30,252 bases of DNA from a virus (taxonomy: Duplodnaviria > Heunggongvirae > Uroviricota > Caudoviricetes), in IMG/VR virus record IMGVR_UViG_2548876960_000006; one strand, written 5' to 3'. The position numbers were made by a program, and so were the translations under genes. Under the pieces are notes generated by a model. It was not told the DNA's origin. It did no database searches and was given only the letters and a program-made list of their open reading frames with translations. This document shows, piece by piece, positions 1,339 to 9,002 of the stretch. The first letter of the stretch is position 1, and each line of letters starts with the position of its first letter.

Positions 1339-1920
1339 TTATTTTATCGTCAGAACAACGCGGCCTATGATTTTTATGTCGTCAATTCCGCAATCAAATG
1401 CCATACCAACACCGCTAACTCTGACTTTTCGTACCGGAATCCGTGTAAGAGTGCGGACGCTTGTTTTTCCTTCAACTTCAACCAACCAATCATCGTCATA
1501 AACTTCAGAATAAGACTGGTCAACAATGTACTGAATAAGGCCATCCAGAACACAAATCGGTTGTTGCGGTAAGGGCTTGCCAGGCAGGAAGATGACTTTA
1601 TCAAGCATAAGTGTGCCAGCGTCATAGAGTTGGCCATCAACAATCTTGCTGCGCGGCATTTTGAGTATGTCTAATTCATCATCATTAAATTTACGTCCCT
1701 GTCCTGTTGCCAGCCACTCCAGATTAGCGCCTGTTTCGGCTACGCATTTCACGACAATATCTGCCGGGAAAACTCCACGCTTGTAGCGTGAAGAAAGAGA
1801 ACTGGCTGCCATGTCCAGATGTTCCGCGAGCTGTAACTTCTGCGTAAATCCGTAAGCCTCGATCACCCTGTCAAGAATCGGTGTGCTATCTACGTTTAGG
1901 TCGATTTTAAATGTGCTCAT
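1339..1920 (-). CDS. cI: CI-type immunity repressor (186 CI-like, HTH N-terminal domain)
   Basis: ORF divergent from the cox-like gene; HTH-like segment GFTQKLQLAEHLDMAASSLSSRYKRGV. Start placed at ATG 1920 (193 aa); the track start at 1962 is GTG and ATG 1956 is also possible. No LexA-type S24 motif recognised. Confidence 0.6.
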   Translation of the reverse strand: MSTFKIDLNVDSTPILDRVIEAYGFTQKLQLAEHLDMAASSLSSRYKRGVFPADIVVKCVAETGANLEWLATGQGRKFNDDELDILKMPRSKIVDGQLYDAGTLMLDKVIFLPGKPLPQQPICVLDGLIQYIVDQSYSEVYDDDWLVEVEGKTSVRTLTRIPVRKVRVSGVGMAFDCGIDDIKIIGRVVLTIK

Positions 1921-1934
1921 AGCGAATCCATAAG

Positions 1935-1947
1935 TCTCGATTCGAGA
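1935..1947. promoter_or_regulatory. 13-bp perfect palindrome TCTCGATTCGAGA; candidate operator
   Basis: Perfect palindrome read directly; the half-site TCTCGA recurs at 1964..1969 inside the putative pR spacer, and TTCGAA at 1995..2000. Confidence 0.35.
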
Positions 1948-1955
1948 AATTGCCA

Positions 1956-1984
1956 TTGACACTTCTCGAAACGCGAATTAATCT
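1956..1984 (+). promoter_or_regulatory. candidate early lytic promoter (pR-like) for the cox/cII/dam/A operon
   Basis: TTGACA (1956..1961), 17-bp spacer, TAATCT (1979..1984), about 70 nt upstream of the cox-like ATG. Confidence 0.45.
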
Positions 1985-2015
1985 GGCTCCATATTTCGAA
2001 TGTTGCCTTATATAA

Positions 2016-2034
2016 CCCTGTATTGCCGTACAGG
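2016..2034. promoter_or_regulatory. dyad CCTGTA-N6-TACAGG (contains CTGT-N8-ACAG) in the switch region; operator or weak SOS-box candidate
   Basis: Inverted repeat read directly between the pR-like promoter and the cox-like start; a possible leftward promoter overlaps it (TTAACC / TATATA on the minus strand). Centre is not AT-rich, so LexA binding is doubtful. Confidence 0.3.
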
Positions 2035-2055
2035 TTAACTTGTGGAGTTTGCCTT

Positions 2056-2277
2056 ATGCGTCCGAACATTACAATCATCATCCCAGAACCATACCTGCCT
2101 TTAGACGAGTATTGCCGCCGTACTGGCACCAACAAAGAAACCGCCAGGAACCTGATCGAATACGGAAAATTACCTATTAAGCCGAAGGGTAAGCAGAAGA
2201 AAGGCCTGGTCGAAGTCAACATGGCCGCGCTCACTATTCAGGCTTTAAGTGAATGTGACATTTCGCTTAACGCGTAA
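2056..2277 (+). CDS. Cox/Apl-like excisionase-regulator
   Basis: 73-aa ORF from ATG 2056 (GGAG 8 nt upstream), first gene of the rightward operon and divergent from cI, as for P2 cox and 186 apl. Track start at 2023 is TTG. Confidence 0.5.
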   Translation: MRPNITIIIPEPYLPLDEYCRRTGTNKETARNLIEYGKLPIKPKGKQKKGLVEVNMAALTIQALSECDISLNA

Positions 2278-3002: not shown

Positions 3003-3431
3003 ATGGCGATTAGCCAGGAACAGCAAAAGCGCGGGCTGGAGCATTTAAAACAGATCCGCCGCAAATACTTCAGCAAAAGCAGCGAGGCCGCTGAATGGTG
3101 GGACAACTTAACACCGGAGTGGCGCGGCGTAGTGCTTCATGCTGCTGCGGTTACATCTGGTACCGGGGCATTTAAAGCCCATTTAAGTAAGTGCTGCTGG
3201 CGGGAGCTTTATGACCGCCTGGGCTATCGGGACATGATTCAACTGCGCCAGGGCATTTCACGGGCGCGGTTAACGTTTGAAGGTTTCGGCAGTTTACGTG
3301 ACAGCGATTTTTCGAAGCGCACCGCGAACCGCTCGATCAAAAAAGTACATCCCATTTATAGCAGTGGCGGGGTGCAGATGGTGATCGCGCCGCATATCGT
3401 CCATAAGTTCCAGCAACAGGGGAATCACTAA
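3003..3431 (+). CDS. hypothetical early protein (142 aa)
   Basis: ATG 3003 preceded by AGGAGG (2993..2998); same frame as the track ORF 2808..3431, whose own start is GTG. Confidence 0.45.
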   Translation: MAISQEQQKRGLEHLKQIRRKYFSKSSEAAEWWDNLTPEWRGVVLHAAAVTSGTGAFKAHLSKCCWRELYDRLGYRDMIQLRQGISRARLTFEGFGSLRDSDFSKRTANRSIKKVHPIYSSGGVQMVIAPHIVHKFQQQGNH

Positions 3432-3832
3432 TGACCATTATTTCCGTTGAGGGCAAATCGTTGGGGGCAGAGCTGGCTGTGTGGGGCGTCCCGCATAACT
3501 ACGCATTAGCGTTTGCAGAGAAAAGCACCAGTAAAAATGGGCGTATCGCTTTGCATCCGTTCTTCTTCAATGACACTGAACACATGACAAATCCGCGTCA
3601 CTGGCTGGCGATCAATGCTGCTTTCTGGTGCTGCGTGTATCGCGAAGCGGAAAGCAAAGAAGCCCAGATAGAAGCGCTGGCGGGGATTCGTGCAATTTTC
3701 TATACAGCCGGGGCATTGGGAGTTGGCGAGATAAAAGCGCTGATCCAGGAGTGGTGGCGGACAACCTATGAGCTGCACCTGATTCCGGCTCCGAACTACT
3801 CAGCCGCCACAGTACAACCCACTTTTCACTAA
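3431..3832 (+). CDS. hypothetical early protein (133 aa)
   Basis: TAATG overlap with the preceding gene; no recognisable motifs. Confidence 0.45.
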   Translation: MTIISVEGKSLGAELAVWGVPHNYALAFAEKSTSKNGRIALHPFFFNDTEHMTNPRHWLAINAAFWCCVYREAESKEAQIEALAGIRAIFYTAGALGVGEIKALIQEWWRTTYELHLIPAPNYSAATVQPTFH

Positions 3833-3844
3833 TTAACAGCCTGA

Positions 3845-3882
3845 ATTTTTTGGCCACGGTTCAAGTGGCCGGGGATTCTTTT
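3845..3882 (+). terminator. intergenic stem-loop flanked by T-runs (possible terminator or attenuator)
   Basis: TTTTTT, then GGCCAC (3852..3857), 7-nt loop, GTGGCC (3865..3870), then GGGGATTCTTTT; lies between ORFs ending 3832 and starting 3900. Confidence 0.3.
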
Positions 3883-3899
3883 GCCTTAAGGAAACCAAA

Positions 3900-4133
3900 A
3901 TGCACATGACACGTCAGGATTTACCCGCAACAAAATCAGGCACCGACCTGCTGGCCATGCTCACCAAAGCCACGCAGGAAGGTAAAGCCGCAGTTGCTGA
4001 TCTGTGTTCCACCCGTCTGGATAAGCTGGCCACTCATGCGGCCAATGAAGGTTTAAGCGCAACGGAAATCGTTGAGTTAATCCGCGAAGAAGCCGCAGCG
4101 ATTTGCAGCAAAGGCGGTGCGGCATGGCAGTAA
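3900..4133 (+). CDS. hypothetical early protein (77 aa)
   Basis: ATG 3900 with AAGGA 8 nt upstream. Confidence 0.45.
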
Positions 4134-7440: not shown

Positions 7441-7647
7441 ATGGATCTTTTGGAGGCGTCGGCACAGCTGGAACGCATTGAGTTATTGGCCAAAATTGCC
7501 CATGTTTACGAAAGTAACCAGAGAGAAAAAACAATCGCTTTGGCCTGGATTGGAGAGCTTGCGGGAGAGGTTCGCGAAATGGTTAAAAAGGAAGGGCAAC
7601 GCCCCCAGAATGGGGGCATTTCAGGCGGCGGGAGTCGCTTTCAGTAG
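7441..7647 (+). CDS. small hypothetical protein (68 aa), possibly SOS-regulated
   Basis: ATG 7441 preceded by a G-rich stretch; MDLLEASAQLERIELLAKIAHVYESNQREKTIALAWIGELAGEVREMVKKEGQRPQNGGISGGGSRFQ; its 3' end overlaps the ogr 3' end convergently. Confidence 0.35.
   Translation: MDLLEASAQLERIELLAKIAHVYESNQREKTIALAWIGELAGEVREMVKKEGQRPQNGGISGGGSRFQ
7585..7617 (-). terminator. possible terminator downstream of ogr (non-canonical)
   Basis: GCCCCC (7601..7606), 5-nt loop, GGGGGC (7612..7617), immediately 3' of the ogr stop on the minus strand; the T-run begins about 10 nt after the stem. Confidence 0.25.
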
Positions 7648-7890
7648 GTCTAATGCCATCTGGCGCTGATCGGGTGAAAGTGCATTCAGTATTTTTTGCA
7701 CCATCGCATCACCCGCTTTAGCGCTGGGGCTGAGAGTGTGGGAGAACGTCAGATTCATAACAAACGTGTGGCCACACTCAACATCTGAACAGGCGCAGTA
7801 AATATCCGCAATTTGCCGGTGCTTCCTGTTCGTTTTACGAATAACAGCCTTTGAGCCGCATTCCGGGCATTCGATTTTCAGAACTCGCAT
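7621..7890 (-). CDS. ogr: Ogr/Delta-type zinc-finger late-gene transcription activator
   Basis: Cys-rich finger CPECG ... YCACSDVEC as in P2 Ogr / 186 B; start taken at ATG 7890 (GGAG upstream). An in-frame ATG at 7944 overlaps the portal stop (ATGA) and would give a 107-aa N-extended form. Confidence 0.8.
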   Translation of the reverse strand: MRVLKIECPECGSKAVIRKTNRKHRQIADIYCACSDVECGHTFVMNLTFSHTLSPSAKAGDAMVQKILNALSPDQRQMALDLLKATPAA

Positions 7891-7940
7891 ATTCCATGCT
7901 CCAGCTGTTAAATGATGCCTGGATTTTAGCCTGTTTCGCC

Positions 7941-9002
7941 TCATGCCGCACCCTTATCCGTTGATTCTGTGTAACTTAAATCAAAGTTAAGGTGTAGCCT
8001 TTCCGGTATTTCGGGATCATTGTTAACGGCCAGCATAAAACGGCGCTGGATGGGGGCAATTTCGCTTTTCTTGTAAATGCGTTCAGCCTTTTCAACATCC
8101 CCCAGTCCGGCAGTGTTCTGCGGGACAATACCGGCGAGGCCAGCAGGGAAACGGTGAGCGTTCAGAATGTCCTGGGCGCTGATGTTCTTGATGTTGGCAA
8201 ATTCATCCTTTGCGGAAATATCCCCCATTTCAATGAATTTGATGGCGTCGCCGTCTCCACCGGGAATGTTTACAAGGATGGTGGAGAAGTTACCGATCCC
8301 TTTGCTGTCACGCAGCTGCTGTTCAATTTCTTCCTCCATTTCGTCCGTCATGCTGGGATCGCGGGTATAAAGAATACCGCCTGTGTGCGCACCATTGTGG
8401 TAATAGCGGCGTCGGAAAATGACCGCTTCACTGTTAAGTAACGCGGAATGCACACCGCCTATGTAGTCCGGCAGCCCGTAGATATGCTGTTGCGGGTCAT
8501 ACATTTTGATGAAGATAATATCTTCTTCTGGCCATACCTGCGGTTCCCCTTCCTGTAACACCACGTAGTCACCAGGCTTATCCAGGGCGTTATCTCTGAC
8601 TTTGCGGCGGCGAATATACAGACCGGGCAAGGGTTCAAGTGCGATCACGTCACCCCAGCCGTTACGAATTTTGGCAATCGCAATATCCCCAAAGGTTATA
8701 TAGTCAAACGCTGCCGCTTCCAGCTGGTCGTGAATAAGCCCGCCCCCCTGGTAGTCTGAAACAATCATGTTTTTACGGGCGTGAATGATGCCGCCGTGCT
8801 GACCGTTAAGATTAATCAGTTGCGCGAGTGCCAGCCGGTCAATCGGCTGGGTGAAGTGATCGGCGGCATTGTCGTACCAGATATCACGGTAATCTGTGCC
8901 GGTAGTCAGAACTGGTTCAGGTTTGCCGAATGTGATAATGCTCATCTTTTTTGATTTGTCGCCGCGCTGGTCGCGCTTAACAAAGCGTTTCTTTTTACTC
9001 AT
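7941..9002 (-). CDS. portal protein (P2 gpQ-like)
   Basis: 353 aa (P2 Q is 344 aa); ATGA overlap with the terminase large-subunit stop; divergent from the O-N-M-L operon as in P2. Confidence 0.85.
   Translation of the reverse strand: MSKKKRFVKRDQRGDKSKKMSIITFGKPEPVLTTGTDYRDIWYDNAADHFTQPIDRLALAQLINLNGQHGGIIHARKNMIVSDYQGGGLIHDQLEAAAFDYITFGDIAIAKIRNGWGDVIALEPLPGLYIRRRKVRDNALDKPGDYVVLQEGEPQVWPEEDIIFIKMYDPQQHIYGLPDYIGGVHSALLNSEAVIFRRRYYHNGAHTGGILYTRDPSMTDEMEEEIEQQLRDSKGIGNFSTILVNIPGGDGDAIKFIEMGDISAKDEFANIKNISAQDILNAHRFPAGLAGIVPQNTAGLGDVEKAERIYKKSEIAPIQRRFMLAVNNDPEIPERLHLNFDLSYTESTDKGAA

Follow-up and report, generated by a model that had tools for sequence, protein, structure and literature searches.

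A probable 186-like lysis-lysogeny switch in an Escherichia coli prophage, with predicted operators that follow the CI repressor type and a candidate RNA hairpin in the early lytic leader

The region described here is probably the lysis-lysogeny switch of a 186-like (Peduoviridae) E. coli prophage, and comparison with relatives makes operation as in phage 186 the most likely reading. It lies in a 30,252-nucleotide stretch of DNA (IMG/VR record IMGVR_UViG_2548876960_000006), the whole of which we refer to as the window. The switch is an ordinary, expected new heteroimmune relative of the well-studied 186 paradigm; its sole element that appears undescribed so far is a conserved hairpin downstream of the rightward promoter, pR. 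An E. coli chromosome matches the window at 100% identity. Relatedness to other prophages and to Escherichia phage ESSI2_ev015 (Peduoviridae) spans 77-97%, with 87-97% for other E. coli prophages and 78% for the phage.

Open reading frames and Pfam matches give the gene order int-cI leftward and apl-cII-fil rightward, and the RefSeq annotation of relatives agrees; the cI start is the one that RefSeq annotates in close relatives. Residues 15-77 of CI match the helix-turn-helix domain Pfam Phage_CI_repr (PF07022, E 6.5e-23) and residues 88-189 match the oligomerisation domain Phage_CI_C (PF16452, E 6.9e-31). The gene order and the two-domain CI, 45% identical to 186 CI over 183 residues, are like those of the 186 pR-pL switch (CI, Apl, CII; Eganvirus). 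The Cox/Apl-like protein (Apl in the comparisons below) belongs to PHROG 575 (E 1.5e-27), and the best structural match of its predicted fold is P2 Cox; this prediction was made with 44 homologues after one from the single sequence had proved too poor (pLDDT 53). Searches of PDB sequences, NCBIfam and Pfam returned no useful match for it, and a direct comparison with 186 Apl, as a test of homology, detected no sequence similarity. Protein families and gene order support the sequence-only reading, which had seen an arrangement comparable to the 186 switch between divergent cI and cox-like genes.

For comparison we collected 105 loci by searching two collections with the Cox-like protein. In every one with enough upstream sequence, cI adjoins the Cox-like gene, and the motifs noted at the switch hold their positions in about 90 distinct relatives. 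Identity across loci is mostly 80-100% for Apl and 52-100% for CI. Because Apl is nearly constant while CI varies, sites that follow CI can be separated from sites that follow Apl; one Cox-like protein, WP_001247709, is identical in four E. coli relatives that span two of the CI types set out below. We assigned sites by three comparative criteria: (i) covariation with the CI N-terminal domain; (ii) invariance with Apl; and (iii) recurrence of boxes beside int. The sequence-only reading had held that the binder of each site is not deducible. This was too pessimistic, since these comparisons assign most sites, if by inference.

Table 1. Features of the switch region and neighbouring genes in the window. 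Promoters, operators, boxes and transcript positions are predictions.
Feature	Position	Strand	Sequence or product	Basis and remarks
Two 10-bp direct repeats	277-296	plus	GTGAGTATTC and GGCAGTATTT	just beyond the int stop codon
Integrase	297-1337	minus		Pfam Phage_integrase
cI	1339-1920	minus	186-type immunity repressor, 193 aa	Pfam domains, identity to 186 CI
O1, predicted CI operator	1934-1948, centre 1941		GTCTC-GATTC-GAGAA	about -50 from predicted pR start; one mismatch to TTCKCN5GMGAA
pR, predicted early lytic promoter	1956-1984	plus	TTGACA (1956-1961), 17 nt, TAATCT (1979-1984)	predicted start near 1991
O2, predicted CI operator	1963-1977, centre 1970		TTCTC-GAAAC-GCGAA	fills the pR spacer; exact match to TTCKCN5GMGAA
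O3, possible weak CI site	1995-2009, centre 2002		TTCGA-ATGTT-GCCTT	includes TTCGAA; left half alone fits
Putative Cox/Apl-like boxes, 10 bp apart	2002-2007; 2012-2017; 2022-2027	plus	GTTGCC; ATAACC (degenerate); ATTGCC	
Conserved hairpin	2017-2034	plus	CCTGTA-TTGCCG-TACAGG	about +27 to +44 of predicted pR transcript; third box in loop
pL, predicted lysogenic promoter	2046-2074	minus	TTGTAA (2074 to 2069), 17 nt, CAAACT (2051 to 2046)	predicted start near 2039
Cox/Apl-like gene	2056-2277	plus	73 aa, first of the rightward operon	PHROG 575, fold
FR-like distal site	2262-2276		TTCGC-TTAAC-GCGTA	overlaps the apl stop codon; O2 is 299 bp away; one mismatch to operator pattern
CII homologue	2308-2811	plus		Pfam Phage_CP76
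Fil homologue	2821-2994	plus		Pfam Phage_186_Fil

The two inverted repeats at pR vary with the repressor. In many immunity types a 5-N5-5 inverted repeat lies at about -115 from the apl ATG, the position of O1, with a half-site that depends on the CI N-terminal domain. All 13 distinct loci that share the window's CI N-terminal motif have O2 at -86 from the ATG, and under other CI N-terminal domains the same position is occupied by TTAGA-N5-TCTAA, TTCGA-N5-TCGAA, TTCGT-N5-ACGAA and others. The correspondence can be written as a short code: the CI motif RGVFPADIVVKC goes with the half-site TTCTC or TTCGC (14 distinct loci), RGGLPADIM.KCM with TTAGA (about 10), RFKRGIFPADMV with TTCGA (2) and SGRYKRGGFPADIVVRCI with TTCGT (2). 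Apl is 99-100% identical across the first two of these groups despite their different half-sites. Since the half-site tracks the CI N-terminal domain against the background of an identical Cox-like protein, we assign O1 and O2 to CI, as predicted operators whose specificity follows the N-terminal domain of the repressor.

Comparison within an immunity type also fixes the register of the predicted sites. The outer pentamers are constant and the central five bases vary, as in loci L005 and L059, which both carry TTCGC-TAAAC-GCGAA. Because the centre is variable, the half-site is TTC(T/G)C and not TCTCGA, the unit chosen in the sequence-only reading: judged by these alignments, the conserved operator unit is TTC(T/G)C-N5-G(A/C)GAA, and the 'GA' of TCTCGA is part of the variable centre.

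The motifs that had drawn attention to this region are present: the perfect palindrome TCTCGA-T-TCGAGA at 1935-1947, the hexamers TTGACA and TAATCT 17 nt apart, a second TCTCGA within the pR spacer at 1964-1969, TTCGAA at 1995-2000, and the dyad CCTGTA (2017-2022), six bases, TACAGG (2029-2034), which starts at 2017 and not, as first given, at 2016. Taken singly, no motif exceeds chance, whereas their clustering and conservation do. Perfect inverted repeats are common in the window (12 of the 6-1-6 form, 9 of the 6-6-6 form) and TCTCGA shows no overall excess (6 copies, 6.9 expected), as one would expect if the repeats were chance matches in an AT-rich intergenic region in which only the genes are meaningful. 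We find this account scarcely credible in view of the position-specific conservation over about 90 distinct relatives, the half-sites that change in step with CI type, and the compensating changes in the stem described below. Three of the six TCTCGA copies fall within 35 bp, and of the seven sequences that fit TTCKCN5GMGAA with one mismatch or none, three fall within 343 bp. Clustering as tight as that of the three pattern matches arose in 0.2% of 2000 Markov simulations, a figure that is partly circular because two of those sites had served to define the pattern. TTCGAA is the weakest of the noted motifs; it reads TTTGAA in several relatives that share the window's CI N-terminal domain.

A third site, O3, is a possible, weak CI site. 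The operator centres are 29 and 32 bp apart, and several immunity types have pR operator spacings of 28-29 and 32-33 bp. Other types carry a cognate site at the O3 position, -52 to -54 from the ATG, for example TTAGA-tactg-ACTAA (L006) and TTCGT-tatct-ACCAA (L097). Within the window's own type, the left half changes from TTCGA to TTTGA in L040, L044 and L049. Three loci (L039, L055 and L075) join a TTAGA-type O1 and O2 to a right half (O3 region, boxes and hairpin) nearly identical to that of the window, which indicates a recombination junction between O2 and O3. We set aside an extra half-site, GCGAA at 1922-1926, because its partner half would fall in constrained cI codons, and we judged a predicted O1-O2 pairing in the pL leader to be a by-product of similar palindromes.

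The predicted operators share the 5-N5-5 geometry of 186 FL (TTCAC-TTAAT-GTGAA) and FR (TTCAC-TTTAT-GTGAA), with the half-site TTC(T/G)C in place of TTCAC, and as in 186 a predicted inverted-repeat operator lies over pR. Their arrangement differs: 186 pR has three operators spaced two helical turns apart (PMC3675496), whereas the sites at the window's pR are FL/FR-like and 29 and 32 bp apart. The closer parallel in spacing is 186 pB, where two A-type CI sites lie 32 bp apart, a spacing at which the DNA is distorted and which is said not to be favoured (PMC3675496). O1, O2 and O3 have the same operator geometry as pB and a centre spacing of about three turns. In 186, pB controls the late activator gene; in the window and in several immunity types the three-turn arrangement is at pR of the switch itself. 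Given the 29- and 32-bp spacing, the 14-mer wheel model of 186 CI, to which the window's CI is linked by its match to the C-terminal domain family, may not transfer unchanged. An Ogr/B-like zinc-finger ORF (CPECG...CACSDVECGH) on the minus strand at 7621-7944 abuts a portal-like gene. Two one-mismatch matches to the operator pattern, at 17435-17449 and 17511-17525, lie 76 bp apart deep in the late region, far from the expected position of a pB analogue, and are probably chance.

We also considered the flanking positions, about 300 bp from pR, at which 186 has FL and FR. The site over the apl stop codon has the position of 186 FR, which abuts the stop of apl, so that the window, like 186, has a distal operator-like site there. 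Its conservation is no evidence of function: the same sequence is found in relatives of other immunity types, whatever their CI, and coding constraint on apl explains it. A function is suggested only by the fit of this sequence to the window's predicted CI specificity. No cognate FL was found in cI at up to two mismatches to the operator pattern, which, with the lack of detectable similarity between the Cox-like protein and Apl, sets the window apart from 186. The sole FL-like sequence in cI, TTTGA-GTATG-TCTAA at 1660-1674, is of the TTAGA type and not cognate for the window's CI. TTAGA-type relatives such as L006 carry this very sequence as their FL-like site, and its presence in the window looks like a relic of the exchange of a module made up of the N-terminal domain and its operators. 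Other immunity types have their own cognate FL at about -385 and FR at +242. In a group of loci represented by L085, whose switch region carries TTCA(C/T)/GTGAA motifs, the stop-codon site (+205 to +222 from the apl ATG) reads TTCAC-TTAAC-GTGTA in place of TTCGC-TTAAC-GCGTA; both halves change symmetrically, and the last Apl residue goes from Ala to Val.

A consensus promoter scan of positions 1700-2500 called no promoter, so our promoter calls rest on conservation. Both -10 hexamers are weak (TAATCT and CAAACT; TAATCT agrees with TATAAT at 3 of 6 positions). At pR, the TTGACA-like -35 and TAnnnT -10 elements stay put in heteroimmune relatives even as the O2 spacer between them changes. Retention of these hexamers across types and the exact pattern match of O2 support the rightward promoter of the sequence-only reading, with a predicted operator within the spacer.

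The leftward promoter is most likely TTGTAA-17-CAAACT at 2074 to 2046 and not a sequence at the dyad, as alignments of relatives indicate. In 81 distinct sequences the stretches 2046-2052 (AGTTTGC) and 2068-2075 (ATTACAAT) show about 100% conservation, even at 2070 and 2073, which are synonymous third positions; at other third positions the figure is 18-50%. The -10 hexamer stops 4 nt short of the ATG, with the -35 at +13 to +18, offsets identical to those of annotated 186 pL. These stretches could instead be conserved for translation initiation or for another factor. The predicted starts face each other about 48 bp apart, compared with 62 in 186. These predicted convergent promoters, with the predicted operators, agree with what had been proposed from comparison with 186.

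The sequence-only reading had put the leftward promoter over the dyad at 2016-2034, with the dyad as a CI or Cox/Apl-like operator controlling it. The minus strand does offer TTAACC (2033-2038) and a TATA-rich stretch (2008-2015) that can be read as TTAACC-18-TATATA, the best hexamers there, and the dyad is a perfect 6-6-6 inverted repeat. Against this, TATATA has no T at position 6, 18 nt separate it from TTAACC, the consensus scan makes no call, and the hexamer positions vary among relatives (2035-2043, for example, is 23-88% conserved). The arms of the dyad differ at identical Apl (CCTGTA versus CCGATA) and agree across different CI types, so the specificity of neither regulator tracks them. 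We therefore consider a promoter-operator combination at the dyad very unlikely and keep pL at 2074 to 2046.

Between the predicted promoters, and apart from the operators, lie the putative boxes of the Cox/Apl-like protein. In 96 distinct relatives, starts of TTG[ACG]C peak at -53, -43 and -33 from the ATG, and some relatives have cleaner arrays, such as ATTGCCCATTATTGCCCATTATTGCCCTGTATTGCCG in L093; only two of the window's three boxes are good matches. An initial view of the window's TTGCC copies as unphased, with spacings of 20 and 26 bp, was overturned by the 10-bp register of the relatives, in which the middle box is degenerate. The reverse complement of the box, GGCAAT, recurs as 10-bp direct repeats beside int in relatives (AAGGCAATATAGGGCAAT in L084, TGGCAAATAATCGGCAATAATCGGCAGT in L110), and by their likeness to these the repeats at 277-296 are probable att-arm boxes of the Cox/Apl-like protein. 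Phased direct repeats both between the promoters and beside int match the 186 pattern of Apl sites at the switch and at attP, and its box spacing of 10-11 bp (PMC7498355); we read the 186 Apl box as GGCAAA from the annotated 186 interval. The window's boxes are fewer and weaker: three lie between the promoters, on the opposite strand relative to apl, whereas 186 has seven there and five at att, and 186 Apl needs three adjacent operators in vitro (PMC7498355). As regards the flank of int, L010, L064, L084, L111 and others have an apparent tRNA 3' end (TGGTGGCCCCTGCTGGACTTGAACC...) about 90-150 bp past the int stop codon; these tRNA-flanked relatives carry an integrase 71-77% identical, and the window's integrase type has a different flank, which is not a tRNA. 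Over the cII start, at 2302-2335, we observed CAAACA-A-TGTTTG, with AAACAT at 2330-2335; these motifs resemble the 186 CII half-sites ATGTTTG...CAAACAT, the activator's sites for pE.

The dyad itself behaves as a stem. Pairing over 47 distinct relatives amounts to 97.9% of cells, and each of the six pairs has changes on both sides. Covariation scored 0.703, compared with 0.234 in shuffles, and none of 500 shuffles reached the observed value. The sequence of the arms follows neither CI type nor Apl: it varies at identical Apl and is the same under different CI. Arm changes that compensate at 100% identical Apl, irrespective of CI type, argue against the earlier proposal of an operator, and they point to an RNA stem-loop in the leader of the pR (apl) mRNA rather than a type-specific operator. 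A search of Rfam 15 gave no match at 2017-2034; the sole match in 1700-2500 lay elsewhere and is a chance one (E 3.5).

A second reading of the dyad is a DNA palindrome bound by another dimeric protein, of phage or host, with no role as RNA structure. The minus strand pairs nearly as completely (96.8%) as the plus strand, and the central TATTGCCGTA shows the good conservation expected for a protein site. Yet complementarity is kept by at least 19 distinct arm sequences, which a single conserved protein would not tolerate, and a variable partner protein was not found. The strands also differ: read on the plus strand, the six non-Watson-Crick in-stem cells are all G-T, never A-C, which leaves six unpaired cells on the minus strand opposite these G-U pairs, and for 16 of 19 distinct stems folding is better on the plus strand. 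This strand preference rests on five wobble-pair lineages and on a difference in energy to which the conserved loop contributes. We consider the protein-site reading improbable and prefer a stem-loop in the pR leader.

The 186 lineage has a longer covarying stem in the same place (L112-L191; 2070-2112 in L002). It comprises 8-12 bp between pR and pL, with the arms GCAATTGAT and ATCAATTGC in 186 itself, encloses the central Apl boxes and varies by compensating substitutions. Pairing there is 82.5%, with double changes in 7 of 12 pairs, counts that refer to a stem specified by us and are a weaker test; RNAalifold, applied to the alignment of the 186 lineage, missed the long stem. Stability favours the plus strand in 38 of 39 sequences, by about 5 kcal/mol on average. 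We found no mention of a stem between pR and pL in the 186 literature searched. It is conceivable, and on balance doubtful, that the stem-loop functions as an RNA element within the early lytic transcript, kept by compensating changes in two 186-like lineages whose Apl/Cox proteins are unrelated in sequence. Candidate roles are that it could pause RNA polymerase before pL, affect the stability or translation of apl mRNA, or promote readthrough of pR transcripts past tR1-like or other downstream terminators. On the plus strand at 3847-3885, between the ORFs 3431-3832 and 3900-4133, there is a terminator-like hairpin followed by a T-rich tail, in a position like that of 186 tR1, upstream of a replication gene.

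Based on sequence comparison, we propose the following mechanism. CI dimers would bind 15-bp inverted repeats of the form TTC(T/G)C-N5-G(A/C)GAA, and CI bound at O2 in the pR spacer and at O1 29 bp upstream would block RNA polymerase at pR. The predicted pL would be a weak promoter that overlaps the apl ribosome site and first codons and faces pR. With facing starts about 48 bp apart, an active pR would interfere with pL, and repression of pR by CI would relieve this interference. The Cox/Apl-like protein would bind ATTGCC-like boxes between the promoters and beside int, and this sharing of boxes would link repression of both promoters to excision. The dyad would act as a stem-loop of the pR (apl) mRNA leader and not as an operator.

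The switch also bears comparison with P2 Pe-Pc, which has face-to-face promoters 40-60 bp apart and, as first early gene, a Cox-type winged-helix protein with direct-repeat boxes (PMC7498355). The P2 repressor C is small and binds direct repeats (PMC1904263, PMC1904268). A P2-type switch, with a small C repressor on two direct repeats at Pe, is not what we found in the window: unlike P2, it has a CII gene and a two-domain, 193-aa, 186-type CI that is unrelated to C and has predicted inverted-repeat operators.

The many natural immunity types that have one Cox-like protein and one promoter scaffold in common, and that differ in CI N-terminal domain and operator pentamer, offer a residue-to-base specificity map for 186-type repressors, and variants whose operators stand three turns apart would allow a test of the CI wheel model. 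If the reading of the hairpin is true, it would add an RNA layer to a switch that has been explained by proteins and promoter interference alone, and if the hairpin is functional it would bear on promoter-interference models of convergent switches.
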